A stretch of 34,433 bases of DNA, from the NCBI GenBank assembly GCA_024762735.1, contig JANTGU010000001.1:1-34433 (forward strand), given 5' to 3'. The translations under genes and the position numbers were made by a program. The number at the start of each line of letters is the position of its first letter. The stretch's first letter is position 1. Origin of the DNA: Bacteroidales bacterium (GTDB taxonomy: Bacteria; Bacteroidota; Bacteroidia; Bacteroidales; F082). A model generated the notes under the pieces. It did not search any database. It worked only from the letters and a program-made list of their open reading frames with translations, and was not told the DNA's origin. Of this stretch, positions 5,248 through 33,480 are shown in pieces.

Positions 5248-5259
5248 ATATCCTTTTAT

Positions 5260-7240: not shown

Positions 7241-8032
7241 ATGGATATGACTTGGTTTCAAGCACTGGTACTGGCAATTGTTGAAGGCCTTACTGAATTT
7301 CTTCCCGTATCTTCTACCGGACACATGATTCTTACCGAGGGAGTTTTGGGCATGAAGAGCAACGACTTTATTCAGGCCTTTATTGTCAATATTCAGTTTG
7401 GTGCTATCTTATCGGTAGTGGTACTTTACTGGAAGCGGTTTTTTCAATCGCTTAAGTTTTATTACAAACTTTTCGTGGCTTTTTTGCCGGCAGCCTTTTT
7501 TGGCTTGCTGCTTCACGACTATATCGACCAACTGTTGGAAAGTGTTTATGTGGTGGCCGTGATGCTAATAATAGGTGGCGTAATTTTGATAATGGTTGAC
7601 CAATGGTTTAAAACCACCGCCGAAAAAGGGAAAGAAGACGTTACTTACAAAAACGCACTGGTTATCGGACTTTTCCAGGTGCTGGCCATGATACCGGGTA
7701 CGTCGCGTTCAGCTGCCACCATCATTGGCGGGATGGTTGAGAAAATGAACAAAAAAGCAGCTGCCGAGTTTTCCTTCTTTTTGGCAGTCCCCACCATGGT
7801 GGCCGCTTCGGGGTATAAACTGCTCGAAAACCACGAAGCCATTACCTCCGACAACATCGGGTTGTTGATTTTTGGCAACGTGATTGCTTTTATCGTGGCA
7901 CTGCTGGCTATCAAATCATTCATCAGCTTTTTAACAAACCACGGCTTTAAAGTTTTTGGCTACTACCGCATCATTGTCGGCGTGGTTATTTTGGTGCTCT
8001 ATTTGTTCGGCGTTGATTTAACAATTTCCTAA
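7241..8032 (+). CDS. uppP: Undecaprenyl-diphosphate phosphatase
   Basis: 263 aa polytopic membrane protein with the BacA/UppP motifs [14 protein letters not shown] and [10 protein letters not shown]. Confidence 0.9.
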
Positions 8033-9574: not shown

Positions 9575-9586
9575 AAACAATTTATT

Positions 9587-10704: not shown

Positions 10705-11052
10705 ATGGATCAAATAAGAAAAGTTGTTGCTTATAAAGACTATTTCGAGATTTTCTTGAAAAAGCAACCCATTAAGGTTCAAAATAAGATTTATAAGATT
10801 ATTGAAGCAATTGAGACCTTTGAGAGAATTCCGGAAAGTTATCTCAAATTAATCAAAGGTACTAAAGGTCTTTATGAAGCAAGAATTTCTTTAGCATCGA
10901 ATATTTGGAGAGTGTTTTGTTTCTTCGATAAAGGAAAACTTGTAATCTTACTTAATGGATTTACAAAAAAAACAAAAAAGACTCCAAAACGTGAGATTGA
11001 AAAAGCGATTCGTTTAATGAAAGAATATTATGAAAACAAAAAGGAGGAATAA
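10705..11052 (+). CDS. Type II toxin, RelE/ParE superfamily (HigB / phage Gp49-like)
   Basis: 115 aa. The pattern KDYFEIFLKKQPIKVQNKI...GLYEARISLASNIWRVFCFFDKGKLVILLNGFTKKTKKTP is typical of Gp49/HigB-like toxins. It lies upstream of an XRE antitoxin, the toxin-first order of HigBA modules. Confidence 0.75.
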   Translation: MDQIRKVVAYKDYFEIFLKKQPIKVQNKIYKIIEAIETFERIPESYLKLIKGTKGLYEARISLASNIWRVFCFFDKGKLVILLNGFTKKTKKTPKREIEKAIRLMKEYYENKKEE

Positions 11053-11053
11053 A

Positions 11054-11344
11054 ATGGATACTAAAAGTTGGACTGAGATAAAAGATGAAGTTTACGGGAA
11101 AAAAGGAACAGAAAGAAGAGATGAACTTGAACGTGAATTTGAATCTTTTAAAATTGGACTTTTATTAAAGAAAGCAAGAGAAGAAAAAAAAATGACGCAA
11201 CAACAACTAGGAAATATTGTTGACAAACAAAGGACTTATATCTCGCGTGTAGAGAATAATGGTAGTAATCTAACATTAAAGACTTTATTTGATATTGTTG
11301 AAAAAGGATTGGGTGGGAAAGTTAAAATCTCGATTGAATTATAA
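11054..11344 (+). CDS. XRE-family HTH antitoxin (HigA-like)
   Basis: 96 aa counted from the ATG at 11054, 1 nt after the toxin stop. The HTH segment is MTQQQLGNIVDKQRTYISRVENNGSNLTLKTL. AAGGAGG sits 6 nt upstream of the ATG. The ORF-track start at 11030 lies inside the toxin gene. Confidence 0.8.
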   Translation: MDTKSWTEIKDEVYGKKGTERRDELEREFESFKIGLLLKKAREEKKMTQQQLGNIVDKQRTYISRVENNGSNLTLKTLFDIVEKGLGGKVKISIEL

Positions 11345-13435: not shown

Positions 13436-15772
13436 CTACCTTACCACCAAAATTTTTGTCACCACTTTTTGCGATCCGTCGCTGTTGGTTACAAAAACAA
13501 GATACACACCCGAGGCTGCTTTTCGCCCGTCCAGCGAGTAGCCGTTCCAAATAGCCTGCCCACCTTCCGACTTGGTAGCGTAAACAGCATTTCCATAAGA
13601 ATCGGTAATTTTTACATCGGCATTATTGACCAGTCCTTTAATGGCAATGGGACCGTTGTAGTTTGGGCGCACGGGATTGGGATAGGCATACACACTATCG
13701 TTGGTAGGGTTCGGGGGCGTGGCTTCTCCTTTGTACGAGATAATACCATTGGTGGTGCCGATAAACACTTCCCCGTCGCTATTGATGGTAATGCCAATGA
13801 TGCTGTTGGAAAGCAACGGGCTGTTTTCGGCGGTAAAATGGTTTAACTCCTTAAGGCCGTCAGGCGAAAACTGAAAAACCCCTGCCCGTTCAGTTCCAAC
13901 CCATTTGTTATTGGCTCCATCCACCGCAATGGCCGTAACTTGTTCGGTTTCCAACAGGTAATCCGCCAGGCCGGAACCGTCGTTTCGAGGGACAAGAATC
14001 TGGTGGGCATCAAAGTCGGCGCCGGGAGTAAAAATAAGCTCCGGGCTTGAAAACACGCTTATTCCTTTGTCCGAACCTATCCAAACTTCACCATCCTGAT
14101 CGGTAGCCATGGCAAAAACATCGGTACCCGGTATAGCCCCGTTTCCTGAAGAAGAGCTTAATACTTTTACTTTATCGTCAGCCGGGTTGTCCAGTGTGTT
14201 GTTATCATTAAAAACAATTAAAAAACCCTCTTTCCGTTTGAATATCCATTTTTGGTTTTGATGATCGACCATCAATTCAGAGATGTCAATGCCACTTAAA
14301 CCGCCACCCAGGTTAAACGATTTCCACGTTCCGTCGGTAAGCATCACCGACAAGAGTGTGGGAGACCCGGAGTTGGCTACCCACAGGTTACCCTCGCTAT
14401 CGAAATCGAGGCCACTGACAAGGGTTAAGTAATCGGCGGCAATCCAGGGTTGTAGTGTGCTGTTGCTCTTGTCGTAAATTTGCGTGAGGTTACCATTTTC
14501 AAATTTCAACAATCCTTTTCCCCAGGTGCCCACGTAAGCAATGTTGTGGTTTGCCGGGTTTACCTTTACACTAACAAAATCTGAAATGGTATCGAAGGCC
14601 GCCGTGTTGGTATAATTGTGGGTTTCCCAGGTATCGTCCACGAAAGAAAAGACCCCGTCGCGCATGTAAAGTTTACCCCAGTTAGAATTGTGCCCACCGG
14701 CTGCCACCCATACATTGGTGCCACCGGCATCTAAATCAAACACGTTGGGTGTACCGGGTCCGTTGGGTCGTATCAACTCGCCATTCCACCCCCTGTTCCA
14801 TGCTTTTAAAAGGCCTAAAAAACTGTCTCCTACCCAGTATTCACCGTTATCATCCATGTCGGCAGACAACGGCCTTAATGACATTTCACTGGGTTTCCAG
14901 ATACTAAAGTTATCCTCCGGGTTTTGATGTCCCACCAGCACATCATACCGTTCCGAAATTAAAAGATTTTCATGGGTAGCATTCAGTTGAAAGTGCCTCG
15001 AATGGTTATCGGGTAAGTAATAATCCCACGACGAACCGTTAAAGCTATAGAGTGTATCGCCATCAAACGATTCAGCTTCATAATTTACAATCATCTTTCC
15101 GTCAAACCATTCAACCTGATTGTAAAACAAATTGGGATTAGGAAGCCTGTTATCTTTATGCCACTGATTAAAATCGGCTAAATTGGGCGAATCGATACGG
15201 GCATAATAGACCCCCTTTTCGGTGGCAGCAAAAAAGGCTGTGTCGTTATAGGCTAAATCCTGCACATCAATAAACCCGCCATCAGGTCCTATGTACCAGG
15301 TATCACGAATTTCAAGCTTGTTAATATCAAGTACAACAATGCCAAAACCGCAACTCAGGTAGGCCAGGTTATCACGAAATTCAATGTTGTTGATGGTTTT
15401 GTTTCCAAGAATTTCTTTGTTCTTGATGTCGGCAATGTTAATGATGGAACCATCTTCATGTACAAGATCCATGTTGGTGTTCGCATAGGCAATTAACAGC
15501 GACCGGGTGCCGGCATGATAACCTATTTTACTGATTCCTATATCGTTTAACCCCTTCACTTTGTCAATCCTTTCAATACGGTTATCACCCGAATTGTAGG
15601 TGAAGATATCAAATGGCGTTGCCGCGTAAACCATGTTGTCTGTGGCAACTACATCAATTACCTTTTGATAGGGTAGATGAGTCCGCCATTGTCCGATGCC
15701 AATTTCCTGTGAAAACAGGTTAGAAGAAAATATTGTTAAAGTAAAGGTAAAGAGTAGCCACTTAAATTTCAT
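13436..15772 (-). CDS. T9SS-secreted double beta-propeller protein, PorZ-like
   Basis: 778 aa with a signal peptide. Propeller-blade repeats run throughout (Reg_prop-like: NKWVGTERAGVFQFSPDG, GEVFIGTTNGIISY, GEVWIGSDKGISVF). It has a C-terminal T9SS sorting domain (YAYPNPV...GVYLVFVTNSDGSQKVVTKILVVR). Size and architecture match PorZ, but the assignment is from memory of that family, not from a search. Confidence 0.55.
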   Translation of the reverse strand: MKFKWLLFTFTLTIFSSNLFSQEIGIGQWRTHLPYQKVIDVVATDNMVYAATPFDIFTYNSGDNRIERIDKVKGLNDIGISKIGYHAGTRSLLIAYANTNMDLVHEDGSIINIADIKNKEILGNKTINNIEFRDNLAYLSCGFGIVVLDINKLEIRDTWYIGPDGGFIDVQDLAYNDTAFFAATEKGVYYARIDSPNLADFNQWHKDNRLPNPNLFYNQVEWFDGKMIVNYEAESFDGDTLYSFNGSSWDYYLPDNHSRHFQLNATHENLLISERYDVLVGHQNPEDNFSIWKPSEMSLRPLSADMDDNGEYWVGDSFLGLLKAWNRGWNGELIRPNGPGTPNVFDLDAGGTNVWVAAGGHNSNWGKLYMRDGVFSFVDDTWETHNYTNTAAFDTISDFVSVKVNPANHNIAYVGTWGKGLLKFENGNLTQIYDKSNSTLQPWIAADYLTLVSGLDFDSEGNLWVANSGSPTLLSVMLTDGTWKSFNLGGGLSGIDISELMVDHQNQKWIFKRKEGFLIVFNDNNTLDNPADDKVKVLSSSSGNGAIPGTDVFAMATDQDGEVWIGSDKGISVFSSPELIFTPGADFDAHQILVPRNDGSGLADYLLETEQVTAIAVDGANNKWVGTERAGVFQFSPDGLKELNHFTAENSPLLSNSIIGITINSDGEVFIGTTNGIISYKGEATPPNPTNDSVYAYPNPVRPNYNGPIAIKGLVNNADVKITDSYGNAVYATKSEGGQAIWNGYSLDGRKAASGVYLVFVTNSDGSQKVVTKILVVR

Positions 15773-15978
15773 AAAATCAAATTATAATGTTCAAAAAACA
15801 AGCTGCTGAAAACAGCTTTTACTATAACTTATAAATTACAAAAATATTGTTTTATAAGAAGGTATTGGCAGGCAGGTGGCAAAATATTAACCCACAGTAC
15901 GGGGCGCTATCCATGTGAAAGCGGAAAATATTAACATAAACTTAAGGTTAAGGTAAAATAGAAGTAACGTTGCATACC

Positions 15979-16009: not shown

Positions 16010-16372
16010 ATGAAAAAACATTTTTTAACCATAGTATTAGTTGCCCTGGTTGGCATTTTCGCTTATGCCGGCAATGATAACGACAAAAAAGAGGCTGCCT
16101 CTGACAATGCTCCTGCTCAAACCATTTCGGTTACAGGAAGCGTAAGTGATTTCGTATCCGGCGAAAATCTGACCGGTGTCGAGATTAAATTAGAAGGCAC
16201 AAATTTAAAAACCTATTCCGACTTTGACGGAAACTTTACCTTCAAAAATTTAAAACCGGGTACCTATAATATTATAGCTTCTTATATTTCGTACGATAAG
16301 AGCCTGGTTGAAAACTTTAAAGCTGCTAAAGATAACAACGAACTTTCCATTAAACTGCAAGCCTCCAAGTAA
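16010..16372 (+). CDS. Small secreted CarboxypepD_reg-like domain protein
   Basis: 120 aa with a signal peptide. The segment GSVSDFVSGENLTGVEIKLEGTNLKTYSDFDGNFTFKNLKPGTYNIIASYISY matches the carboxypeptidase regulatory-like fold. Confidence 0.6.
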   Translation: MKKHFLTIVLVALVGIFAYAGNDNDKKEAASDNAPAQTISVTGSVSDFVSGENLTGVEIKLEGTNLKTYSDFDGNFTFKNLKPGTYNIIASYISYDKSLVENFKAAKDNNELSIKLQASK

Positions 16373-20319: not shown

Positions 20320-21252
20320 TTATTTCAGTTTGTAGGCATAAAGTTTGGGGGATATTTCTTTTTGCTTTTCGCTATAAGTAAAATACTCTTTAGAAGAATT
20401 GCCCCAGCAGAGCGCCTCTCCTTTTGGCTCCTGAACATAAGGGAGCATGACAGGCTGCCGCGAAAACATGGTAACCAATGATTCTCTCCCGTTTCGTTTC
20501 CACCGATAAATATGCTGATAAGTTTTAACCAGTACATGCTTTCCATCCATGGTAATATCGGCAGCCGTTACCGGTTCTCCGTTAAAGTCAATTTTACCCA
20601 GAAACTCCAAAGTGTTTATTGCTTGATAACTATATGGAAAACCGAGGGTGTAAATTCTGCAACGACTATTAGATTTTGTAAGAACAACCATTTTTTTGGA
20701 TATTGGATCCACAAAAAAGGCATCGGCATCCTGAGACAAATCGGGATATTGTAAGCGTATGATACCCGTCGCTCTTATCTCTTCAAACCCTTTAGACGGC
20801 GTGAATGCCGGTTCATCAAAAGCAAACACGGTAACCGATTCTCGTTTGTTATAATTATCGCCAATATCGGCCAAAAAAAGTTGATTAAAAACGCCGCTGC
20901 TGTCAGGTCCAATGGCTATATCCTCGGCATCTCTAACTCTCCCGTGGATTATTTTATAGTTTGATATTTGCTGCCCATTTTTAGAATAGAGATACAGATA
21001 CGGGTTGTTGCCGTGATCCTGGTGAACCCAGAAACATTTTTTGTTTTTAATGCTTGACACTATTCCACTTACCTCCGGTAAATTTATACCCGGAGTTGTT
21101 GACGACACTGTTGCTTCAATAACCGGAAAGCGAGTAAAAACATCAAGATTAACAATGGAAGCACGCATCTCCCCGGGTTGATCGGCATGATAGCCGCACC
21201 CTGAAAACATAACAGATAAAAAACTCAATATTATAAAGAAAAAGGATTTCAT
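20320..21252 (-). CDS. Hypothetical lipoprotein, possibly a beta-propeller (SdiA-regulated/phytase-like) fold
   Basis: About 310 aa from the ATG at 21252 (the track start at 21258 is TTG). The lipobox is FSGC. Motifs LPEVSGI, DAEDIAIGP and LFLADIGDN are suggestive only. Confidence 0.45.
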   Translation of the reverse strand: MKSFFFIILSFLSVMFSGCGYHADQPGEMRASIVNLDVFTRFPVIEATVSSTTPGINLPEVSGIVSSIKNKKCFWVHQDHGNNPYLYLYSKNGQQISNYKIIHGRVRDAEDIAIGPDSSGVFNQLFLADIGDNYNKRESVTVFAFDEPAFTPSKGFEEIRATGIIRLQYPDLSQDADAFFVDPISKKMVVLTKSNSRCRIYTLGFPYSYQAINTLEFLGKIDFNGEPVTAADITMDGKHVLVKTYQHIYRWKRNGRESLVTMFSRQPVMLPYVQEPKGEALCWGNSSKEYFTYSEKQKEISPKLYAYKLK

Positions 21253-21530
21253 TACCAATGTTTTAACTTAGAAAACAGTACAATCTCCCTTGTTGAAAAA
21301 GGGTTATTATACTATGAAATTAACACGGCAATGTTATGGCATTAGTATTAGCTGAGTATTAATCGAATATTACTATTTGGTAAATATTTAACTGGTTGAC
21401 CCCCGTTATCCTTCCTGTTTTCCAGGGTTAAATTCAGCTTGGATTCGCATGCTGTGCGAATTCACCTGTCGCAGATGAATTCCTAAAAAGTTTGGCCATA
21501 CTTTTTATTGAAAAGAGGATGCCCTAATCG

Positions 21531-21569
21531 CAAAAAAGGCTGCCACTCCCCAAAAAGGAGCGCAGCCTC
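21531..21569 (-). terminator. Rho-independent terminator of the LamG gene
   Basis: The minus-strand RNA reads AGGCUGCGCUCC-UUUUUGG-GGAGUGGCAGCCU followed by a U-run. That gives about 12 bp with one bulge. Confidence 0.65.
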
Positions 21570-21638
21570 GAAACCAAATTCCTACCTTTGGTTATGTCGT
21601 TAATTTCCATTGGACGAACCTGAAACTGTCAGGGTTTT
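21531..21638 (-). repeat. Repeat R1, copy a: last 13 codons of the LamG gene, spacer and terminator
   Basis: It aligns with 28103-28212. The core 21557-21638 matches 28131-28212 at 78 of 82 positions by my hand alignment. Confidence 0.85.
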
Positions 21639-22553
21639 GCCATTGTTAATGGTAAATGTTTTTCCGCTTTCGGTAGTAATCTCGATAACCTCTTTATCCT
21701 CATCCAGCGTGATGTTGGAGTTGATTTTTACCCTCGACCAGCTTTTGGAAGGGCTTCCCTGCCCGTCTAACCAGTTGGCAGCTTCCGACCAGTTGCCATC
21801 GCTGCCGCTTTCGAAAGGTACAGGAGCGGTGGAGTTAACCCAATCATCATCTGTCATATTAGTCAGTGTGCCTTGATTTCCGGAAATAAGATCACTCGCC
21901 GTTGTTCCGCTCCCATCATTAAATTGCCAATAACTTATCAGGCCGGTTTCGCTGCCGGAAAGGGTACGGCACATATTCTCTCGGATTTGTGTTGAATCAA
22001 GGGCTACATTCCAGATGCGGACTTCATCCATTAATCCACTAAAAAAATACCCACCGTTTGTACCCGAAGCGATAACTTTATCATCTGTATTATCCACGAA
22101 AATATAATCAGCATCGGAAATCAGGGTTTGTTCTTCTCCGTTTACATAGATTTTATGCGTTCCGCTACCGGTTCCACTTCTGGTATAAACAATATGGTTC
22201 CATTGGTTGGGAACAATAGCATTATCATTTGTTTGAGCAATCCAGGTATTTACACCTGTAACGACGACACGGTTTGTTCCTCCGCTTCCGGGACCAACTT
22301 CCAATTGGAAACTACCCGAGCGGTTGTTTTTTCTTGTGGAATAAATTCCCTGCCTTGTAGAAAGATCGGTTGGTTTTATCCACGCTTCTACGGTTAATAC
22401 GTTTCCCGTATTTAACGAAGCATCATTTCCGATATTCACATAATCATCCGTTCCGTCAAAATCCAGAGCGTCACCGGAAAAGTTGTCCTGTGCACTTAGC
22501 AAGGTATACAGTATGACAAAAGTAAGTATTAAAATCAGTTTTATTCTTTTCAT
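21600..22553 (-). CDS. Secreted LamG (concanavalin A-like lectin) domain protein
   Basis: 317 aa with a signal peptide. Laminin_G_3-type motifs include ALDFDGTDDYVNIG, TVEAWIKP, WNHIVYT, IYVNG and GLMDEVRIWNVAL. The C-terminus ends abruptly after GKTLTVSGSSNGN, and there is no T9SS sorting domain. Confidence 0.8.
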   Translation of the reverse strand: MKRIKLILILTFVILYTLLSAQDNFSGDALDFDGTDDYVNIGNDASLNTGNVLTVEAWIKPTDLSTRQGIYSTRKNNRSGSFQLEVGPGSGGTNRVVVTGVNTWIAQTNDNAIVPNQWNHIVYTRSGTGSGTHKIYVNGEEQTLISDADYIFVDNTDDKVIASGTNGGYFFSGLMDEVRIWNVALDSTQIRENMCRTLSGSETGLISYWQFNDGSGTTASDLISGNQGTLTNMTDDDWVNSTAPVPFESGSDGNWSEAANWLDGQGSPSKSWSRVKINSNITLDEDKEVIEITTESGKTFTINNGKTLTVSGSSNGN

Positions 22554-22593
22554 AGCTTATCCATTTTATAGGTTTATCATTATTTCCCAATGT

Positions 22594-22899
22594 TCATTGA
22601 GACATAGTATCTGTTGTATCGATCATTGAATTTTCAAAGATTTTAAATGATGTATAAAGCCGGGGCTTTGATGGGAATATTTTGATGGAATTAATTACTG
22701 CTCCATCCGGGCCGATGCGGCAGTATTTAAGAAATTCTTCAAGATTGGTTTCTTCCCCTTCGGCTTCGATGAATATGGAATCGTCACCGGTATATTTTGC
22801 AAAGCCATTAATATGATATATTCCTGAAAACTGTTTAATATAAAACAGGAAGCCTGTTTTTTGAACTTTGCCCAATATTGTTATTTGCAAATTTTTCAT
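22594..22899 (-). CDS. Acylphosphatase-like fold mini-protein with a degenerate active site
   Basis: 101 aa. ILGKVQKTGFLFY...INGFAKYTGDDSIFIEAEGEE..LEEFLKYCRIGPDGAVINSI...FKIF follows the acylphosphatase pattern V.G.VQGV.FR...G.V.N..DGSV...EG. The phosphate-loop Arg and the catalytic Asn positions are replaced. Confidence 0.55.
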   Translation of the reverse strand: MKNLQITILGKVQKTGFLFYIKQFSGIYHINGFAKYTGDDSIFIEAEGEETNLEEFLKYCRIGPDGAVINSIKIFPSKPRLYTSFKIFENSMIDTTDTMSQ

Positions 22900-22925
22900 T
22901 CAAGTCAAATGTATGAACCGGGATA
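22846..22925 (-). repeat. Repeat R2, copy a: promoter plus first ~17 codons of the acylphosphatase-like gene
   Basis: It aligns with 26187-26266, roughly four-fifths identical by hand alignment. The shared part includes the -7 box and the ATG. Confidence 0.8.
22906..22913 (-). promoter_or_regulatory. Candidate -7 promoter box (TAcaTTTG) of the acylphosphatase-like/LamG pair
   Basis: Forward caaatgta is TACATTTG on the minus strand and ends 6 nt before the ATG at 22899. It is conserved in repeat copy R2b. Confidence 0.45.
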
Positions 22926-23084
22926 GGCGATCATTATTTTCTCCTCCAGGTCCGTCAATAAATACTTTTGAATAGTCGGTTCGGTTTTGCCCAATTATAC
23001 TCACTGAAAAAACAAAACTCTGGATTACGATAAACAGTAATTTTTTTTTATGATGTTTTAATTTTATGGCATTTTCAAAATATC

Positions 23085-24617
23085 CTATTCATTAATCGAC
23101 ACCTCCTTGGTAAGAACGGTTCCGTTTTTATTAATCAACCTGACAAAATATATCCCCGTTTTTACACCGGGACACAATACCACACGTGTCGTTTTGCTGA
23201 TTTTTGTTTGATAAGCCAGTTGACCTGTGATGTTATATATTCTCACCTCTCCCGATACCGGAGTGTTGTCTTTGGACTGAATATACACAAGGTTTCCGTG
23301 GGAATACAGCAGTGTTTTTTCATTGGCCTCCTGATCGTTTATTCCCATGTTGGGATTAAAGATTAAAATAAACCGTTTGCTGTCGCCGCTGGTCGCGGAA
23401 AATGTATAACTTCCGCCTTGAGTCAGGTTTGTTTGTGAACCGTTGTGAAGGTCTTTCAGGACAGCCTGTTTGTCTTCAAACACACCTGTTTGCTGTTGCA
23501 GGCTGACGCTGTAAGCCCCGTCAGAAGGGATACGGACACCGAGCTGGACGGCTTTTGCAGGATCCGAATCCGGATAGCTGTTGACCGCCACTTTTACACT
23601 GTCGGAAGTATAAGACCATATTTGGGGAACCGCAGCGTCAAAGCTCATCATCTTCAGAGCATCGTTTCTGTCCCTGGTGCATTGGGCGTTGTTTATTCCC
23701 CGAAGGACGGTTTCATCGTAATATTCATCAGAGCTCAGGCGCAAAATAATGGCCTCTTCACGGGTGGAAGTACTTTTTAGCAAAGTAGCGATGTTGTGAA
23801 CCTGCATGGCATGGGTAAAAGTAAAGTTGCCTGCATTTGACACGTCCACGAAGAAGGCCTGCCCCGGTGCGAGATAAGCCCCGGAGGCACCCCCGTCTAT
23901 TTCATCATATCCTGGCCCACCCGCTCTGTATGGGTTATACACGTAGGCAAAGTTGTCGGCAAAAGCAGAACGGTCTGCCAGGTTCCAGTCAATGGCCGAC
24001 GTGTAAGGATTTCCAATCAGGTTCCAGCCTGCCCAGTCCGCACCTGCAGTATAAGACAGTGCAGGGGCTGTTACATCCCCCGAATTGAACGTCCCGTTAA
24101 ATTCAAACATGGTTTTTCCATAGTCGTAAGCATAAGCTATCAGGTATCCTTTGCCGGGTGTAAACGTGGTTTCAAAACTGCTGTTCACAGTATTGCCCGA
24201 AGCCCGGATGTTGATCCAACAATTGTACTGTGACTGATCGAAACTATAAAAATCAAAGTTTGTAGGCAGCATTCCTCCGGAAGGTGACGGGACAAAGTCG
24301 GAGCCTACAATAATTTCGTCTGCAGCGGACGAGGCAATCATGTGCCAGCTGTTATCGTTGGCTATGTGCTGTTGGCGTATGAAGGCACCGCTGCCGTTGA
24401 CTGAGCCGTCAATAATTAAAGAGCCTTCGCTTATGGCATTGGCACCTATAATAAAGGTTCCGCTGTTGTTCAGGTTGCCTGAAAGAGTGAAGGTACAACC
24501 CGGCCCAAGGGCAAATGAAGTCCAGCTACCCATAGAAAAGCATCCGCTTTGTGCATCGACTGTTGCTGTGCACAACAGCAACAGGATTGTTATGATGTTA
24601 TGATATCTTTTTTTCAT
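23085..24617 (-). CDS. T9SS cargo protein of unknown function (type A C-terminal sorting domain)
   Basis: 510 aa with a signal peptide. It has a conserved GWNLIGNPYTSAIDW-type module and a C-terminal sorting domain (VRIYNITGQLAYQ...GIYFVRLINKNGTVLTKEVSI). Its ATG overlaps the stop of the upstream gene by 1 nt (TAATG). Confidence 0.7.
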   Translation of the reverse strand: MKKRYHNIITILLLLCTATVDAQSGCFSMGSWTSFALGPGCTFTLSGNLNNSGTFIIGANAISEGSLIIDGSVNGSGAFIRQQHIANDNSWHMIASSAADEIIVGSDFVPSPSGGMLPTNFDFYSFDQSQYNCWINIRASGNTVNSSFETTFTPGKGYLIAYAYDYGKTMFEFNGTFNSGDVTAPALSYTAGADWAGWNLIGNPYTSAIDWNLADRSAFADNFAYVYNPYRAGGPGYDEIDGGASGAYLAPGQAFFVDVSNAGNFTFTHAMQVHNIATLLKSTSTREEAIILRLSSDEYYDETVLRGINNAQCTRDRNDALKMMSFDAAVPQIWSYTSDSVKVAVNSYPDSDPAKAVQLGVRIPSDGAYSVSLQQQTGVFEDKQAVLKDLHNGSQTNLTQGGSYTFSATSGDSKRFILIFNPNMGINDQEANEKTLLYSHGNLVYIQSKDNTPVSGEVRIYNITGQLAYQTKISKTTRVVLCPGVKTGIYFVRLINKNGTVLTKEVSINE

Positions 24618-26017
24618 TAGTTTTTTACCATTCCGGATACAATTGTTTTCAATTCTTCAACACTTTTACTCAGCCCGGTAAGTTCACTTTTCATCTTTGC
24701 ATTTTCTTTTTTCAATTCAGCATTTTGTTTACTGAGTTGATGAGTTCTCTTAATAAGCGCTTGTATTGCAATTAAGTTCACACCCATTAAATCCGCCTGG
24801 TTGATGGTAGTGTCGTTTCCGGAAACCCCGTATTTATCATGTCCGAAAGCCGAAAAGAATTCCTGCGCCATAGGCCCGTAATGGCGGAATTTTGTGCTGT
24901 CCTGTCCTTTGTAGCTCCAAGTTCTCAAATTAAACTTATCTATTTTTTTTAGTACGCTCTCGCCGTTTATCGAAAGGAAAGCATATTTTTTTAAAGAATC
25001 TGATATAGTACTCCAACTGTTACCGCCTTCATTTAATGCTACCCCGGTTGTGCATCCTGAATTAGAATAAAATTTATATCCCCCGCTAAAACGCATGATT
25101 ATCTGATTCTCTGTAGTGCAGTTTTTCACAGTTGTTGTTGAGTGATCCCCAATGATAAATGCACCGGCATATCCGCCTACAGAAACATAACTTCCTAATG
25201 CTGTGGACCAATATCCGTTGGCAGTTGTATGATCTCCAATTGCTGTGGAAACATATCCACTGGCGGTTGTATTTAATCCTATTGCTGTGCTACAATCTTC
25301 ACTGGCGATTGTAAGTTGTCCCATGGCAGTAGAAGAAGATCCGCTGGCAGTCGTCTCGTCTCCCATCGCGGTGGATTTATTTCCGCTGGCAGTTGTTTTG
25401 TATCCCCATGCGGTAGAGCTAATTCCGATCGCAGTTGTTTGGTCTCCCATTGCGGAAGAATAATCTCCGCCGGCAGTTGTTTCGTTTCCCATCGCAGTAG
25501 AATAATCTCCGTTGGCAAATGTGCCGTATCCCAATGCGGTGGACCAACTTCCGTTGGCGGTTGTACTGCCTCCCAACGCAGTAGAATTAATTCCGCTGGC
25601 ATTTGTACTTGAGCCTATCGCGGTGGCACCACTTCCGCTGGCAGTTGTGTTACCTCCCAGCGCAACTGATTCATATCCACTAGCGAGTGTATTGGCTCCC
25701 ATGGCAACAGAGGCATTTCCTGTATTGTTCGCATCCCATTTGTCCCCTGTGACCGTTCCTGCTCTGAATGCTGCTTTTGCAGGGTACCACATTAAACGGG
25801 TTCCTGTGCCTGTGGTTGGGATCGTTCCGGTCGAGAGAGCTTCGCCAATATAAAAACCGGCATCGCCGTTTAATCTCATTAATACTACATTGACGCTGTT
25901 TTCTACTTTAAAACTGGCTGAACTATCTGCCGCCGGCAATGTTAAAATGGTGGACTGCGCAAATAAGCAGGTGGGAATTATTAGTATTGCTGCAATTACT
26001 AAAATTAGTTTTTTCAT
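24617..26017 (-). CDS. Tail-fiber domain protein: YadA-head-like 14-aa repeats plus a Peptidase_S74 intramolecular chaperone domain
   Basis: 466 aa with a signal peptide. It carries 13 tandem units of the S-T-A-x-G-x-x-T-x-A-x-G type (aa ~101-283). The C-terminal ISDSLKK...LRTWSYK...HYGPMAQEF...LIAIQAL resembles the endosialidase/tail-fiber auto-cleaving chaperone. A coiled-coil tail follows. Confidence 0.75.
   Translation of the reverse strand: MKKLILVIAAILIIPTCLFAQSTILTLPAADSSASFKVENSVNVVLMRLNGDAGFYIGEALSTGTIPTTGTGTRLMWYPAKAAFRAGTVTGDKWDANNTGNASVAMGANTLASGYESVALGGNTTASGSGATAIGSSTNASGINSTALGGSTTANGSWSTALGYGTFANGDYSTAMGNETTAGGDYSSAMGDQTTAIGISSTAWGYKTTASGNKSTAMGDETTASGSSSTAMGQLTIASEDCSTAIGLNTTASGYVSTAIGDHTTANGYWSTALGSYVSVGGYAGAFIIGDHSTTTVKNCTTENQIIMRFSGGYKFYSNSGCTTGVALNEGGNSWSTISDSLKKYAFLSINGESVLKKIDKFNLRTWSYKGQDSTKFRHYGPMAQEFFSAFGHDKYGVSGNDTTINQADLMGVNLIAIQALIKRTHQLSKQNAELKKENAKMKSELTGLSKSVEELKTIVSGMVKN
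25169..25717 (-). repeat. Imperfect 42-nt periodic coding repeat (13 units) inside the tail-fiber-like gene
   Basis: A repeating 14-aa unit is visible in the translation. The repeat also produces long stop-free alternative frames on both strands, seen in the ORF track at 25245-25853. Confidence 0.8.
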
Positions 26018-26138
26018 TTTTTCTGTTTTTATTTGTTATACTATTTAACTTTCTCAAGCTCTTTTTACCCTGCCTGCAATAAGGTGCTGTATTTTAATAA
26101 TTTTATACACTTTTTATTATCAGACCTTCGCTTTTACT

Positions 26139-26240
26139 TTACAATTTCTGTGTCGATTTCAAAGAATTGATTGTTATGCGCCTTGTCAGGAAGCCTGTTT
26201 TTCTAACTTTGCCCGATATTACTATTTGTAAATTTTTCAT
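26139..26240 (-). pseudogene. Internally deleted remnant of an acylphosphatase-like gene
   Basis: The ATG at 26240 opens a 33-codon frame, MKNLQIVISGKVRKTGFL..., matching MKNLQITILGKVQKTGFL of the 22594-22899 gene. The 3' part (tctttgaaa-tcgacacaga) matches the 3' end of the intact gene out of frame. The middle of the gene is missing. Confidence 0.65.
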
Positions 26241-26266
26241 TCAGGACAAATGTATATCCCGGAATC
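26187..26266 (-). repeat. Repeat R2, copy b
   Basis: See 22846-22925. Confidence 0.8.
26247..26254 (-). promoter_or_regulatory. Candidate -7 promoter box (TAcaTTTG), probably now driving the tail-fiber/T9SS operon
   Basis: The box and its spacing to the ATG are the same as at 22906-22913. I found no other TAnnTTTG between here and the tail-fiber ATG at 26017. Confidence 0.45.
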
Positions 26267-26287
26267 AGCCAAAACAAATTATAGTGG

Positions 26288-26323
26288 TTTGGAATCGTAA
26301 AAGGTAGTTCGGAATCGTCAAAA
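26288..26323 (-). promoter_or_regulatory. Direct repeat TTyGGAATCGTmAAAA x2, candidate activator (AraC-type) binding site
   Basis: The GGAATCGT cores sit at 26291-26298 and 26311-26318, 20 bp apart. A degenerate third copy, CGGAATCAGCCAAAA, lies at 26260-26274. The site is 35-75 bp upstream of the -7 box and directly downstream of the TPR-AraC gene. Confidence 0.35.
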
Positions 26324-26391
26324 ACGGGGGCTATTAACCTGAGTTAGATATATGGCTTGAAATAATTTACCCGACAGGGCTTAACTGCAAA

Positions 26392-28071
26392 TTAAACCTT
26401 GCCTTTAGTAATGGAATCCCTGAAATAAGATGGTGTGATACCGGTATTCTTTTTAAAGCAGGTGAAAAAAGTTGATTTGGAATTGAAGCCTGACATTTGT
26501 CCTATCCCTTCAATGGAGAGGTAATTGTTTGCCGGTTCCGCCAACAATTGTCTTGCCGTCCTTATGCGGTATTCGTTGATAAACGCATTGAAGTTTTGGT
26601 GATGATGCTCATTGATCAGTTTTGAGAGGTAACTCCTGTTGGTATTTAGTTTATGAGAGATGTCGTCCAACGAAATGTCGCTGTACAGGTAGGGCTTCTC
26701 CTCGGACATGTAATTATCCAGCTTTCTAAGAAGCTGCAATGATTGCTCATTATTCGAAATTGTATCATCTTCTATATTTCTCTTTTTATTTAGCTTTGAG
26801 AGTAAACCAAATTCCTTTTCCGATTTAACAATTTCAAGATTCCTGTTGACAAGGTCATCATAAGCCCTCTTCTTTTTCCTGAACTGAACGCTAATCAATA
26901 TAAACGATGCTGCAATAACGAAAATGCCCAAAGCTAAAAAGAGTATGGCTTTATTTTTAGCAGCTATTTGTAACAAGCGAATTTCATTATCCTTTTTCAA
27001 TAAAACAATTTCATGTTCCTTCTTTTCTGCTTCGTATTTTGCCGCCATATCATAGATGTTAGCCCTTATCTTGGCATTGTATAATTTCACCTGCATTGTC
27101 CTGGCAATCCGCAAATATTCATAAGCGTTATCCATATCGCCCAAATCATGGTGTATGCTGGCAAGTAAAAGGTATATCTTGAAAAATAAACTTTGATACT
27201 CATTTATATCGCCAAGTTCTATGGACTGTTTCAATATTTTTTTTGCCTGATATGGCTTGCCCATTTCCATATAAGTTTCTGCAATATTGGTGGATGTTTG
27301 CAAAGCCTGGGGCATCATTTCCGTTTTGATAAAGTTATCATAAGCTGCTTTGCCATAACCAAGAGCCACCTGGTATTTCTTTTTAAGCATGTAGAAATAA
27401 GCCAATTCGTTTTGAGAGGTCGCGAGATGATCGATAAAATTGTTCTCTTTTGATATTTTTATACAAAGATTTGAATATTTAAATACCGAATCGTATCGAT
27501 GTGGCACCATGTACGTCCCACACTCGGCATATAGTGCCGCAATCCTGTTACAGGCATAAGCCCTGTTGTTCAGGCTGATGTTTTCATTAAGGAGTTTGTT
27601 GATAATATCTATCCCTTTTTGGAATTCTCCTATCTTGCGGTAACCCTCTGCAAGGTAAATCCTGGCAAGAACAGCCGAATCGGAATGTTGGTCAACATCT
27701 TTAAGGTATTTAAGCAGCATGGGTATCGCGATATTCGGTCTTGTTTGGATGAGGTAACTCTTGGCTTTCTCAAGTACTGAGCCGTAATGGGTTGAATCAA
27801 TAACCGGGTATTGAGCCAAATTTTTATTTGACTCAATATCATAAAGATATTCAATACTGATTTTCAGATAATTGATTTTGGCTTTCTCAATATCATTTAA
27901 CTGTAGCTCTTTTTCAAGGGAATAGATTAAATGATTGACGGAATCCCTTGTACCTTTCAACATTTGCATAATATCTTCATATTCCGACTCAAAACGGAGG
28001 GAATCATTTTTTTGCCCAAAGGAAAGTTGCAAACCCAAAAATAGCAGCATTAAAACAAATAGCGGTTTCAT
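26392..28071 (-). CDS. Transmembrane one-component regulator: periplasmic TPR domain, TM helix and cytoplasmic AraC-type HTH
   Basis: About 559 aa from the ATG at 28071, with signal peptide MKPLFVLMLLFLGLQLSFGQ. TPR-like repeats are followed by the TM segment AILFLALGIFVIAASFILISV. The C-terminal AraC HTH reads LDDISHKLNTNRSYLSKLI...IGQMSGFNSKSTFFTCFKKNTGITPSYFR. The track start at 28125 lies inside a terminator and upstream of the predicted -7 box. Confidence 0.8.
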   Translation of the reverse strand: MKPLFVLMLLFLGLQLSFGQKNDSLRFESEYEDIMQMLKGTRDSVNHLIYSLEKELQLNDIEKAKINYLKISIEYLYDIESNKNLAQYPVIDSTHYGSVLEKAKSYLIQTRPNIAIPMLLKYLKDVDQHSDSAVLARIYLAEGYRKIGEFQKGIDIINKLLNENISLNNRAYACNRIAALYAECGTYMVPHRYDSVFKYSNLCIKISKENNFIDHLATSQNELAYFYMLKKKYQVALGYGKAAYDNFIKTEMMPQALQTSTNIAETYMEMGKPYQAKKILKQSIELGDINEYQSLFFKIYLLLASIHHDLGDMDNAYEYLRIARTMQVKLYNAKIRANIYDMAAKYEAEKKEHEIVLLKKDNEIRLLQIAAKNKAILFLALGIFVIAASFILISVQFRKKKRAYDDLVNRNLEIVKSEKEFGLLSKLNKKRNIEDDTISNNEQSLQLLRKLDNYMSEEKPYLYSDISLDDISHKLNTNRSYLSKLINEHHHQNFNAFINEYRIRTARQLLAEPANNYLSIEGIGQMSGFNSKSTFFTCFKKNTGITPSYFRDSITKGKV

Positions 28072-28094
28072 AATGGGGATAATACTTGAGAACT

Positions 28095-28102
28095 CAAATA
28101 TA
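28095..28102 (-). promoter_or_regulatory. Candidate -7 promoter box (TAtaTTTG) of the TPR-AraC gene
   Basis: Forward caaatata is TATATTTG on the minus strand. It follows the terminator U-run directly and lies about 23 nt upstream of the ATG at 28071. Confidence 0.4.
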
Positions 28103-28143
28103 CAAAAAAAAGGCTGCCTCTCCAAATTAAGGAGCGCAGCCTC
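28103..28143 (-). terminator. Rho-independent terminator (paralogous copy of the one at 21531-21569)
   Basis: The minus-strand RNA reads AGGCUGCGCUCC-UUAAUUUGG-GGAGAGGCAGCCU followed by a run of 8 U. Confidence 0.6.
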
Positions 28144-28212
28144 GAAACCAAATTCCTACCTTTGGCTTTGTCGTTAATTTCCATTGGGCGAACCCGAAAC
28201 TGTCAGGGTTTT
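28103..28212 (-). repeat. Repeat R1, copy b
   Basis: See 21531-21638. Confidence 0.85.
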
Positions 28213-28320
28213 AACTTTGGTAACAGATAATATCGTCCTGTTTCCAATTATAATCTTTGGGAATAAAAAACAAAACCGGACTGATTTTGAGTAAAAAGCA
28301 GGACAGGAAATAAACTTCTT
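28174..28320 (-). pseudogene. 3' remnant of a LamG-type gene with no start codon
   Basis: The frame is open for 49 codons without any Met and ends ...KTLTVSGSPNGN-stop. The intact gene ends GKTLTVSGSSNGN-stop. Only the last ~13 codons are clearly homologous. Confidence 0.55.
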
Positions 28321-31750: not shown

Positions 31751-33445
31751 CTATTTATTCTTAAAGAATTCAGTCCAACCGGCAGCCCAGTTTTCATCGC
31801 CAAAGGCACCTTTATAGTTAACTGCATCAAACCATGAATCGGGATAGTCGGCCATGTTACCGGTAAGCGGGGTAGCGGGAACTGGATTGGCAGCACTGAT
31901 GCCCGGGTCGGAAACCACGTTTCCTGCGGTAGTAAAGTACGCAGCAAAGGCTTCAACAGCAGCGGTAGAGTCGGCAGGGCTTGAACCATGTCCGGAAACT
32001 TTAAAAATACCTTCTGCTGTTCCATCAGCCACATCCCAGAAAACATTGTTCTCAACGGTTAAAATACCATCCTGAAATTGTTTGTATGCATCCTGGTCGT
32101 CAGCAAGGTTTTCAATGTCAACCCCTTTTGCCTGGTTAAAGAAAATGGAGTTGGCATAGTGTCCACCGGCGTTATCGCGGAAAGTGATGGTGCGTTTTCC
32201 GGCATCGGCACCCCTACCAATGTAAGTAGCGTTATAAATGTTAGGCTGGGCGTAAGGAGTACCTGTTTCAGGGTCGGTACCACCATCGTGCTCACCAAGA
32301 CGGTCGCCTTCGTTAGGATCCTGAATGGCACACCAAAACTGACCTGATCCGCGGAAGCCTTCGTCGTAGTCAAAGCTGTCATCAGCGCAATAAACCGAAA
32401 GGATATGTTTTAGATGGGGGGTGCCGCCAAAGAACTCGATGCCATCATCTTTGTTGGCTAAAATCTCCACATAATCAATCACGGTACCTGAACCAACAGC
32501 ACCCAGAGTTAAACCGTTAATTTCGTTGCCATCGCCAATATCGGTACCACCGTGACGAATGGATACGTATTGAATAACCCCGGAGTTGTCAGCATCGTCG
32601 CTGCCACCGTACAAACCTCTTGGCTCGTTGGTTGGAATACCTTCAATTTGTGATTCGCCCGGTGTGGAGTTTAACTGCGCTTTACCCAGCACAATGAGTC
32701 CGCCCCACAGGCCTCTGTCAGCCAAACCCACTGATCCGTTCAGGTCGTCAGCTTCACAAGTAAAGATAATAGGTGCATCTTTTCTTCCTTCAGCCATAAT
32801 TTTACCCCCTCTGGCAACAATCAAAGCCGAAGCATTTTCACCTTGTCCGGGTTTTCCTTTGATGACTGTTCCTGCCTCGATGGTTAAAGTCTGACCGTCG
32901 TTTACAAAACAGAAGCCATCTAATAAATAGGTGTTGTTGGCAGTCCATGTTTGAGTACCTACACCATTTCCATCGTCTTTAATGGTTACGGTTTCGTGAA
33001 CCGTGCCCCCTAAAGTAATAGATTGCTTTTGGGAAGCTTCCATGGCAGTTCCTTCGTTGTCGTAAATGCTGGCAGCCGAGGATGGTCCCACGGTTAACAG
33101 TTCGTTTCCATCTGAAAAGTCAGTCAGCGTTACATCGATGGTTGCTTCGGTAGCTCCTGCGGTGTGGGTTACCTCGTACGATTCCAATGTTCCGGTACCA
33201 CCCGATATCGTTACATTAAAACTATTGTTATCCAGGTTTCCGGTTTTATCAGCATTTTTATAAACGGCCTCGCTAAAAGTTACCGTTGCTGTAAAAGCTT
33301 TGTTTTGACCTTCAATAGAAATATTGGTCATGGTTGGAGGCGTTGGATCGGGTGTAACGGGATCTTTACCATTACAAGCCGAAAAGGACAATACAATAAC
33401 AGATACCAATGCTGTTAATAATAAAGAAAGGTTTTGTTTTTTCAT
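31751..33445 (-). CDS. Surface lipoprotein with an N-terminal Ig-like region and a probable right-handed beta-helix, associated with the TonB-dependent receptor
   Basis: About 564 aa from the ATG at 33445 (the TTG at 33475 overlaps the predicted -7 box). The lipobox is LSFSAC. The motifs TLTIEAGTVIKG, GGLIVLG, GVIQYVSIRHGG and VIDYVEILANKDDGIEFFGG suggest beta-helix turns. I cannot name the family. Confidence 0.5.
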   Translation of the reverse strand: MKKQNLSLLLTALVSVIVLSFSACNGKDPVTPDPTPPTMTNISIEGQNKAFTATVTFSEAVYKNADKTGNLDNNSFNVTISGGTGTLESYEVTHTAGATEATIDVTLTDFSDGNELLTVGPSSAASIYDNEGTAMEASQKQSITLGGTVHETVTIKDDGNGVGTQTWTANNTYLLDGFCFVNDGQTLTIEAGTVIKGKPGQGENASALIVARGGKIMAEGRKDAPIIFTCEADDLNGSVGLADRGLWGGLIVLGKAQLNSTPGESQIEGIPTNEPRGLYGGSDDADNSGVIQYVSIRHGGTDIGDGNEINGLTLGAVGSGTVIDYVEILANKDDGIEFFGGTPHLKHILSVYCADDSFDYDEGFRGSGQFWCAIQDPNEGDRLGEHDGGTDPETGTPYAQPNIYNATYIGRGADAGKRTITFRDNAGGHYANSIFFNQAKGVDIENLADDQDAYKQFQDGILTVENNVFWDVADGTAEGIFKVSGHGSSPADSTAAVEAFAAYFTTAGNVVSDPGISAANPVPATPLTGNMADYPDSWFDAVNYKGAFGDENWAAGWTEFFKNK

Positions 33446-33472
33446 TTTTGTAAATTTTTGATTTTTAAATTT

Positions 33473-33480
33473 CAAAACTA
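33473..33480 (-). promoter_or_regulatory. Candidate -7 promoter box (TAgtTTTG) of the lipoprotein-TBDR-MORN operon
   Basis: Forward caaaacta is TAGTTTTG on the minus strand, about 27 nt upstream of the ATG at 33445. Confidence 0.4.

Follow-up and report, generated by a model that had tools for sequence, protein, structure and literature searches.

The described systems closest to the locus treated here are of several kinds. They include membrane-spanning one-component activators, such as SusR of Bacteroides and the ToxR/TcpP/CadC-like proteins, and AraC/XylS activators that bind tandem direct repeats beside a promoter, such as AraC at I1-I2, RhaS and XylS. They also include small proteins: UpxY and UpxZ, encoded by small, locus-specific and trans-acting regulatory leader genes of Bacteroides capsular polysaccharide operons (UpxY being NusG-like), and the small partner proteins of the AraC-type activators of type III secretion genes (InvF-SicA, MxiE-IpgC, ExsA-ExsD). 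Here we report on a 34,433-nt stretch of DNA from a Bacteroidales bacterium (contig JANTGU010000001.1; hereafter the window), in which a small gene with an acylphosphatase-like product (the minigene) lies downstream of a TPR-AraC regulator gene and among genes for secreted proteins. An original prediction from the sequence had read the locus as an array of autonomous cassettes, each made of a promoter, an acylphosphatase-like leader gene, secreted cargo and a terminator. We consider it instead to be an internally rearranged copy of a recurring Bacteroidota module. The architecture of this module and its recurrence we hold with high confidence; the statement as a whole, including the mechanism proposed below, we rate as evenly balanced between right and wrong.

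The minigene product matches the Pfam family PF00708 (Acylphosphatase) at 6.8e-12, with 45.9 bits against a gathering cutoff of 22.5. Its AlphaFold2 model has a predicted local distance difference test (pLDDT) score of 91.5 and, in Foldseek, aligns with the solved acylphosphatases 3br8, 8jfs and 2w4d with template modelling (TM) scores of 0.83-0.96 and a root-mean-square deviation of 0.8 A, while the best sequence match in the Protein Data Bank is HypF (3vth). None of the 21 NCBIfam acylphosphatase equivalog models scored above its cutoff, the best being NF011009 with 53.6 bits against 119. The phosphate-binding loop V-x-G-x-V-Q-G-V-x-F-R reads GKVQKTGFL in the window protein, which puts Leu18 at the position of the catalytic Arg, and Tyr36 aligns with the catalytic Asn (Asn41 in the vertebrate enzyme), including in the 8jfs alignment. 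Among about 200 aligned relatives, this second position is Asn in 116 and Tyr in 63. The Tyr-type remains coherent when the site is masked, the nearest neighbour being also Tyr-type in 49 of 62 cases, and the Q-G-V signature of the loop is degenerate throughout it. The Arg is kept in most other Tyr-type members and replaced (by L or P) in the clade of the window. G10, G16, Y36 and G63 are invariant. Because the Arg and Asn are replaced and the equivalog cutoffs missed while the fold is retained, the minigene product is, as judged from its sequence and predicted structure, a catalytically degenerate acylphosphatase fold belonging to a distinct Tyr-type sub-family. The original prediction had already called it catalytically degenerate, and Leu18, Tyr36 and the degenerate Q-G-V bear this out. 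Sources label its relatives 'acylphosphatase', but the sub-family is almost certainly not one. A third degenerate variant (MVKHYDITLLYESQIEGFRF...YVQRQLNNSV), in which the HMM alignment puts an Arg in place of the catalytic Asn, was seen in L113/L129 (6261-6536), L126, L127, L142 and L166; L113 and L129 also have a canonical Asn-type gene, 3.7 kb away.

Loci comparable to that of the window were sought by anchoring on the minigene, by anchoring on the regulator in species-representative genomes, and by a scan of metagenomes. The minigene is without close relatives: a word-indexed homolog search with it returned only its own protein, and when 1.84 billion representatives were scanned exhaustively with HMMER, the best of 787 matches was 53% identical. 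The Tyr-type loci obtained by minigene anchoring are L001, L003, L013, L014, L011, the P0161 contig, L097, L099, L101, L102 and L104, with L101-L104 added by the metagenome scan. Overall, in about 17 independent loci the gene after a Tyr-type minigene encodes a secreted or surface protein; this cargo includes LamG giants of the type IX secretion system (T9SS), PLD, PI-PLC, BNR, BACON and tail-collar proteins. Every minigene-anchored Tyr-type locus with enough flank has a same-strand gene with a signal peptide or secreted domain next downstream (Collar, LamG/Por_Secre_tail giants, BACON, BNR, LamG+FG-GAP and PI-PLC-X), and the cargo gene starts 12-120 nt downstream of the minigene, 12-26 nt in most loci.

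A TPR-HTH_18 regulator gene lies directly upstream in six of the nine assessable minigene-anchored loci. Among these, L001 has a tail-Collar protein and a large open reading frame (ORF) downstream, L003 a 2040-aa LamG x2/Por_Secre_tail protein, L013 a 2081-aa LamG x2/sorting-domain protein, and L014 two LamG/sorting-domain proteins of 2022 and 1148 aa. No regulator precedes the minigene in L011 (BACON protein downstream), the P0161 contig (BNR protein) or L097 (LamG + FG-GAP giant), and the upstream side of L099 (2255-aa LamG protein) is not assessable. Over about 450 aa, the window regulator shares 31-37% identity with those of the minigene-anchored loci; it is 61% identical to that of L102, whose cargo consists of a PI-PLC lipoprotein and a nucleoside hydrolase, and 53% to that of L017. 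Anchoring on the regulator, we found a downstream Tyr-type minigene in all seven loci with its closest homologs (L017-L023, from Lentimicrobiaceae and Bacteroidales metagenome-assembled genomes, MAGs) and in none of the 73 more distant homologs in species-representative genomes. In L017-L023 the cargo is again varied: a T9SS protein, Beta_helix+LamG, an FGE-sulfatase-domain protein, Glug+LamG, LamG x2, and a PLD protein with a sorting domain.

By comparison, about 48 Asn-type controls were examined in all, some 45 distinct ones coming from the metagenome scan: the regulator was present in none, a -7 box near the ATG in two and a strong phased repeat in one. The Asn-type genes of L005-L010 and L100 lie in unrelated housekeeping contexts. 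Since regulator and minigene recur together and the cargo varies, the conserved core consists of regulator and minigene, and the cargo is interchangeable. The suggestion that the minigene recurrently precedes interchangeable secreted or surface cargo is thus borne out by the Tyr-type loci, unlike the Asn-type controls. The TPR-AraC gene had been taken for a bystander between cassettes, which does not agree with the 31-61% identical regulators that precede the minigene elsewhere: judged from these comparisons the regulator is part of the module, and its conserved first element in at least 13 loci. We found no paper linking acylphosphatase-like proteins to T9SS, LamG or Bacteroidota surface genes. 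The module is therefore apparently undescribed, as the original prediction had also supposed of such a system.

Some of these loci show further peculiarities. The L021 minigene (~5244-5565) has a 1-nt frameshift and is either a pseudogene or a product of MAG assembly error. L019 carries small paralogous ORFs at ~9480-9720 and 15521-15835, proline-rich and with a hydrophobic C-terminal tail GAPIGxGTLLLxGLGxxYGG[KR]K, each 218 nt past a T9-like cargo gene, on both sides of the module; a 72-nt repeat of 83% identity lies inside them.

Upstream of the minigene, the module carries a tandem direct repeat. In the window its two half-sites match at 11 of 12 positions at a 20-nt spacing, a score reached in none of 500 shuffles, and this is the sole occurrence in the window. 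The repeat has the arrangement of AraC/XylS sites (half-sites about 21 bp apart beside a promoter), making it a candidate operator. A direct repeat at the same 20-nt spacing (21 in L014) is present in nearly all regulator-linked loci, with the second half-site starting 51-67 nt before the ATG. In each half-site one portion, TTTAC/TTGAC, is shared among the loci and another is specific to the lineage. Conservation of the half-site TTTACGATTCCGAAC extends over the window, L104, L102 and L017, even with minigene proteins only about 50% identical; the L104 operator (TTTACGATTCCGTAC / TTTACGATTCCGAAC) is near-identical to that of the window, and L102 and L017 have related forms (TTTACGATCCTGAAC). 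L097 and L099 also have a perfect tandem repeat, although without an adjacent regulator (the upstream side of L099 being the one that is not assessable). Such a conserved phased repeat is the pattern that would be expected of an AraC-type activator site. In L102 (~2040-2125), four consecutive TTTACGATCCTGAAC-like half-sites are present at ~21-nt phasing versus the usual two, which suggests higher-order binding of the regulator.

The promoter is also unusual in its position. In most Tyr-type loci only 4-8 nt separate the end of a TAnnTTT[GA] box from the ATG; in the window this gap is 6 nt. In Bacteroidota, the sigma-A box occupies positions -12 to -5 (PMC9723704), so that a 4-nt gap would put the start of transcription on the A of the ATG, and the 6-nt gap of the window would leave a leader of about 2 nt. 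Few transcripts of this phylum have a short leader or none: 3.7% of 5' untranslated regions are shorter than 10 nt in Bacteroides thetaiotaomicron (PMC7366714), and 5.5% of mRNAs are leaderless in Flavobacterium psychrophilum. The Tyr-type minigene mRNA is thus predicted to be leaderless. A near-leaderless promoter had been proposed for the window, and the recurrence of the -7 box at 4-8 nt across Tyr-type loci strengthens that proposal.

The window was compared with itself along all 34,433 nt by blastn and with an ungapped repeat finder, and its features are collected in Table 1.

Table 1. Features of the locus, given in minus-strand order with positions in the window.
Feature	Position	Strand	Description
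R1'	28106..28256	-	Relic of the 3' end of a LamG-type gene, two hairpins, T-run
Regulator -7 box	28095..28102	-	TATATTTG; 23 nt upstream of the regulator ATG; presumed promoter
TPR-AraC regulator	26392..28071	-	559 aa from ATG 28071; TPR + HTH_18
Operator-like tandem direct repeat	26287..26322	-	TTTGACGATTCCGAAC / TTTTACGATTCCAAAC, 20 nt start to start
R2', predicted promoter + stub	26187..26278	-	-33 TTTG 26278-26275; -7 TACATTTG 26254-26247; ATG 26240; 18 codons
Stub ORF, truncated minigene	26139..26240	-	33 codons, MKNLQIVISGKVRKTGFL then TRRITINSLKSTQKL, stop
Tail-fibre-like protein, secreted	24617..26017	-	466 aa; signal peptide, YadA_head, Peptidase_S74, C-terminal coiled coil
T9SS cargo	23085..24617	-	510 aa; type A C-terminal sorting domain
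R2	22846..22924	-	-7 box 22913-22906, ATG and first 18 codons of the intact minigene
Intact minigene	22594..22899	-	101 aa, Tyr-type acylphosphatase fold; Leu18, Tyr36
LamG protein, secreted	21600..22553	-	317 aa, signal peptide, Laminin_G_3 4.7e-29
R1	21532..21649	-	Last 13 codons of the LamG gene, hairpin ACCAAAGGTAGGAATTTGGT (21592-21573), terminator hairpin, T-run
R1 terminator hairpin and T-run	21567-21538; 21537-21532	-	Hairpin GC-rich

Self-blastn showed that the dispersed repeats of the window amount to two pairs, R1 and R2, each with two copies only, and that the sole further repeat is a 42-nt tandem repeat in the tail-fibre gene. The R1 pair (21532-21649 and 28106-28223) is 89% identical over 118 nt (E 3e-38) and reaches 151 nt at 81% identity with the ungapped repeat finder; the R2 pair (22846-22914 and 26187-26255) is 88% identical over 69 nt (E 1e-18) and reaches 79 nt at 85%, its homology spanning 26265-26187 in the R2' copy. 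The two repeat pairs that had been said to mark cassette boundaries are thus confirmed, and both lie at boundaries of gene units. R2 and R2' carry the same -7 box, and in R2' the TTTG lies 20 nt upstream of it.

Two observations bear on how the locus would be transcribed. The only operator is found next to the regulator, ahead of the stub copy R2', whereas the intact minigene copy has no -33 and no convincing operator upstream (the best repeat there matches at 7 of 12 positions, as in 411 of 500 shuffles). Outside coding sequence, minus-strand -7 boxes occur at the locus only before the regulator (28102-28095), in R2' and in R2, so that none precedes the tail-fibre or the T9SS gene, and we found no terminator-like fold between the T9SS gene and R2. 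In view of its retained operator, -33 and -7, and of the lack of any other -7 box before the tail-fibre and T9SS genes, R2' probably still functions as a promoter, followed by a stub ORF, and drives these two genes; with no terminator in between, the intact minigene is probably co-transcribed with the genes upstream of it. The most economical reading is that of a single regulated unit running from the R2' promoter through stub ORF, tail-fibre gene, T9SS cargo, minigene and LamG gene to the R1 terminator, in which R2 would be the left edge of a displaced minigene segment. The stub ends 121 nt before the tail-fibre ATG. The tail-fibre/T9SS segment (23200-25800) has a GC content of 0.43-0.50 compared with 0.35-0.42 in its flanks, and the same gene pair is present in the same order in L095, which together suggests that the segment arrived as a unit.

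A second case of such a stub was found in L020, an unrelated Bacteroidales MAG, where a 166-nt direct repeat of 93% identity covers operator, promoter and the first 14 codons. Its copy A follows the regulator and leaves a 15-codon stub, which ends 20 nt before the cargo ATG and is succeeded by BNR and T9SS cargo genes, while copy B precedes an intact minigene. The promoter-stub duplication has arisen twice independently, in the window and in L020. The stub junction follows codon 14 in L020 and codon 18 in the window, so that its site is not fixed, and no recombinase is present, which argues against site-specific cassette insertion and for duplication/deletion or homologous exchange. An integron-like or site-specific cassette array was rejected for the same reasons, no integrase, recombinase or transposase domain being found in the 34-kb window.

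The cargo proteins themselves appear modular. The window LamG protein aligns at 45% identity to the C-terminal 290 aa of the L021 cargo, and in the 1499-aa cargo of L022 a LamG-like stretch (765-1046) runs into a segment (1032-1498) homologous to the window T9SS protein. L017, the closest relative, has a LamG ortholog at the end of its module (7288-8275) with the same hairpin core downstream; this ortholog contains an in-frame TAG and a frameshift, and is a pseudogene or reflects MAG assembly error.

The second R1 copy tells of an older event. Both R1 copies fold as terminator-like structures on direct folding (-28.9 and -28 kcal/mol, z about -3.5), although a simple terminator scan had missed these hairpins owing to its loop and bulge rules. 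The onset of the R1 homology is sharp: the last 13 LamG codons are well conserved in R1', while further upstream there is only about 60% similarity, which ends at ~28256, so that the limit of 28320 earlier given to the LamG remnant was too generous. R1' lies 86 nt past the stop of a MORN_2 gene and directly abuts the -7 box of the regulator. The best explanation is that it is all that remains of a cargo gene in a module once located upstream. T9-like cargo genes stand directly upstream of the regulator in L013 and L019, the L019 module being in addition flanked by a repeat. R1' probably now terminates the MORN_2 transcript, which would probably account for its survival. Rfam gave no match on the whole window, so R1 is not a known RNA family, and a scan of metagenome contigs with an R1 30-mer gave none either, in a collection that does not contain the window itself. 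Within R1, a 20-22-nt inverted repeat, AACCAAAGG(T/C)AG(G/A)AATTTGGTT, is kept in both copies (21573-21592 and 28145-28164, minus strand) and could be a protein-binding palindrome or a small RNA hairpin, with no Rfam match; its core also occurs in L017 (~8333-8356, 3' of the LamG ortholog) and in L095 (~502-537, at an unrelated position).

The domain assignments of the original prediction all hold in Pfam and NCBIfam, as does its minus-strand gene order. The regulator most likely starts at ATG 28071, the longer ORF from an upstream TTG being probably spurious. Its predicted layout is an N-terminal signal or anchor, a TPR region, a coiled coil (YEAEKKEHE...), a transmembrane segment and a C-terminal double HTH (HTH_18 at 1.5e-16 and HTH_AraC at 4.7e-10 in Pfam). 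Both the hydrophobic N-terminus (MKPLFVLMLLFLGLQLSFG) and the hydrophobic segment AILFLALGIFVIAASFILISVQF, which is followed by RKKKR and kept in five of five aligned homologs, were read directly from the sequence. The sorting domain of the T9SS cargo scores 33.2 bits with TIGR04183 (cutoff 23) and 27.6 with PF18962 (cutoff 27), which identifies the 510-aa protein as T9SS cargo, and its start overlaps the stop of the tail-fibre gene by 1 nt. The LamG and tail-fibre-like proteins have signal peptides but no T9SS sorting domain, and an exact look-up of the LamG protein returned no contigs on record. The tail-fibre-like protein has twelve 14-aa YadA_head repeats (seven YadA_head matches plus Peptidase_S74 in Pfam), Peptidase_S74 being an intramolecular-chaperone domain; the corresponding region, 25193-25700, is made of twelve 42-nt tandem units of 60-80% identity.

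The remainder of the window is ordinary chromosome, with genes for PBP2, PFK, MscS, FtsX, UppP, TruB, RlmN, RecO, a PorZ homolog and a TonB-dependent receptor. The PorZ homolog (13436-15772, minus strand; PorZ_N_b_propeller 6.7e-42) is a T9SS component, so the organism has the secretion system that the cargo sorting domain implies. A prophage or tailocin tail-fibre locus was rejected on the basis of these neighbours, which are chromosomal housekeeping and envelope genes (TonB-dependent receptor, MORN, acyltransferase, PorZ, RecO), and phage-like domains are limited to Peptidase_S74 and Collar. Elsewhere in the window we observed a toxin-antitoxin-like pair (10705-11344, plus strand) of overlapping Gp49/HigB-like toxin (PF05973, 3.5e-23) and HTH_3 genes, near a gene with an Mrr_cat-like restriction endonuclease domain (8729-9574). 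Two minus-strand ORFs have no Pfam or NCBIfam match: one of 312 aa with a lipoprotein-like signal (20320-21258), just 3' of the R1 terminator, and one of 574 aa (31751-33475). A 120-aa ORF (16010-16372, plus strand) consists of a CarboxypepD_reg-like domain alone, a domain with which TonB-dependent receptors of Bacteroidota usually begin; the ORF may be a receptor gene cut short or a stand-alone domain.

Across the loci, the module comprises five elements: a one-component regulator predicted to span the membrane, with periplasmic TPR sensor, transmembrane segment and cytoplasmic AraC-type HTH; two (sometimes four) direct-repeat half-sites at 20-nt phasing just upstream of a -33/-7 sigma-A promoter; a predicted leaderless promoter with the -7 box ending 4-8 nt before the ATG; an acylphosphatase-fold protein of ~95 aa that lacks the catalytic Asn and, in the clade of the window, also the Arg; and a variable cargo of at least one gene, whose product is secreted, a lipoprotein or sorted by the T9SS. 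We propose that the regulator would sense an envelope or extracellular cue, bind the tandem repeats and activate the leaderless promoter. The minigene product would be the first to be made and would work on the regulator in trans, without enzymatic activity, as its partner or feedback modulator; the cargo, meanwhile, would be exported. In the window, the native operator and promoter of R2', with its 18-codon minigene stub, would drive the GC-richer two-gene insert, and the intact minigene and LamG gene would follow without operator or intervening terminator, ending at R1.

The regulatory-partner role of the minigene, which we regard as possible though on balance somewhat doubtful, is suggested by the loss of its catalytic residues and by its co-occurrence with one clade of regulators and with the operator. 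It is kept while the cargo changes completely, and stays intact where cargo has moved in front of it. Action in trans, not specific to a cargo, is suggested because the cargo types are mutually unrelated and because in the window and in L020 cargo stands behind the stub promoter with an intact minigene kept downstream. In a wider interpretation, the Tyr-type protein would serve a SusR-like TPR-AraC transmembrane activator as its dedicated signalling partner, without enzymatic activity; with a phased operator and a strictly leaderless promoter, the two would make up a portable platform for arbitrary secreted or T9SS proteins that captures cargo by promoter/5'-stub duplication. Such a platform, previously undescribed, would in uncultured Bacteroidales and Lentimicrobiaceae place adhesins, phospholipases, sialidase-like and tail-fibre-like proteins under an envelope signal; we advance this as a whole only tentatively and consider it doubtful.

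Several points weigh against the interpretation given here. Three Tyr-type loci (L011, the P0161 contig and L097) lack an adjacent regulator, though L097 still has an operator, and the regulator-anchored sample is not independent evidence for the regulator linkage. Most loci are short metagenome contigs of uncultured organisms. The intact minigene of L020 has a membrane-transporter fragment after it in place of cargo, and the higher GC of the window insert could come from Gly/Ala/Thr-rich repeats and not from foreign origin. Operon structure, promoter activity and binding of the regulator to the operator are all read from sequence, and the partner role draws on genomic association and the exclusion of alternatives.

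Among these alternatives is the original prediction itself, with one intact and two dead autonomous cassettes and the AraC gene a mere neighbour. Both repeat pairs are real and lie where that proposal puts them, and tandem modules seem to exist elsewhere, given the cargo upstream of the regulator in L013 and L019 and the flanking repeat of L019. Yet R2' holds the only operator, a full -33/-7 and the sole promoter candidate for the tail-fibre and T9SS genes, the intact copy has no operator, and the regulator is the conserved first element elsewhere, so that we consider this arrangement fairly unlikely. The locus reads better as one regulator-controlled module with an internal promoter/5' duplication and one upstream cargo relic. 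Its duplication and erosion are supported, but R2', which had been called decayed, stands in the canonical position with native operator and promoter. At the other extreme, the minigene could be an ordinary, possibly active acylphosphatase beside surface genes by chance, and R1 and R2 generic dispersed intergenic elements. The Pfam score above the gathering cutoff, the name given to its relatives and the occurrence of the 20-nt R1 hairpin core in L017 and L095 would fit. This we find very improbable, as both catalytic residues are replaced and every equivalog cutoff is missed, the linkage is specific to the Tyr-type and not shared by the Asn-type controls, and R1 and R2 occur just twice each in 34 kb, each with coding sequence of the adjacent gene, the R1 30-mer having no match in a metagenome collection from which the window itself is absent.

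Two further explanations accept the module but assign the minigene another role than that of a regulatory partner. Its product could serve very large cargo as a holdase or export chaperone in the cytoplasm, or otherwise act on cargo before Sec/T9SS export, in line with its position immediately upstream of giant LamG/T9SS proteins of 1,100-2,250 aa in many loci and with a 12-26 nt spacing that suggests co-expression. However, the cargo is extremely varied and in many cases small (a PI-PLC lipoprotein of 359 aa, a 300-aa Collar protein, a BNR lipoprotein of 284+ aa, a 577-aa PLD protein), in the window and L020 the minigene would come after cargo placed behind the stub promoter, and we know of no chaperone role for the acylphosphatase fold; we judge this role unlikely. 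Alternatively, the minigene could be a leaderless leader cistron, which loads 70S ribosomes at its 5'-terminal AUG and passes them to the cargo by termination-reinitiation, the protein being secondary. The phylum does not use Shine-Dalgarno sequences, the leaderless geometry is conserved, the gap to the cargo ATG is short in most loci, and the 20 nt between the L020 stub and its cargo preserve that geometry. Nevertheless the protein is constrained, with a high-confidence predicted fold, four invariant residues and a coherent sub-family, intact copies are retained after stub formation, and the window stub ends 121 nt before the tail-fibre ATG; we find this explanation quite improbable.

The regulation of the numerous T9SS cargo and surface-protein genes of Bacteroidota is largely obscure, and the module offers a defined regulatory unit with many cargo types. 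It also provides a candidate function for a sub-family now annotated "acylphosphatase", and what would be a clear example of leaderless transcription being conserved, in a phylum with few leaderless mRNAs. The twice-arisen promoter-stub duplication suggests a simple route by which new secreted-protein genes could be recruited into an existing regulon.

Compared with known proteins, the minigene product shares the beta-alpha-beta-beta-alpha-beta fold of acylphosphatase (PF00708, EC 3.6.1.7) and of the acylphosphatase-like N-terminal domain of HypF, and is of similar length (about 90-100 aa). It differs in lacking the phosphate-binding Arg and the catalytic Asn, in its degenerate V-Q-G-V signature, and in a context of regulator and secreted cargo instead of housekeeping genes. 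UpxY and UpxZ resemble it as small first genes that are kept while the downstream surface content varies, but they have no sequence or fold relationship with the minigene, whose function is putative, and no invertible promoter is present here. As in the InvF-SicA, MxiE-IpgC and ExsA-ExsD pairs, an AraC-type activator would be modulated by a small locus-encoded protein, with TPR modules involved; here, however, the TPR forms part of the regulator itself and is predicted to lie in the periplasm, the fold of the small protein is that of an acylphosphatase, and the export route is Sec plus T9SS.

A further likeness is with the SusR/ToxR-like and AraC/XylS activators. The window regulator is predicted to share their periplasmic sensor, single transmembrane segment and cytoplasmic HTH, and the L013 regulator homolog has a weak match to the Pfam family TPR_SusR; as in AraC/XylS systems, two direct-repeat half-sites about two helical turns apart abut the -33 element. 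In contrast to SusR and AraC systems, the sensor of the module is a long TPR array with a coiled coil, and the first regulated gene, through a binding that is predicted, encodes a leaderless acylphosphatase-fold protein; unlike with SusR, the regulated genes encode T9SS and surface proteins and not a sugar-utilisation system. The kind of system, a one-component regulator with its regulon, is therefore known, and its unusual conserved features are the leaderless promoter and a first gene that encodes a dead enzyme.

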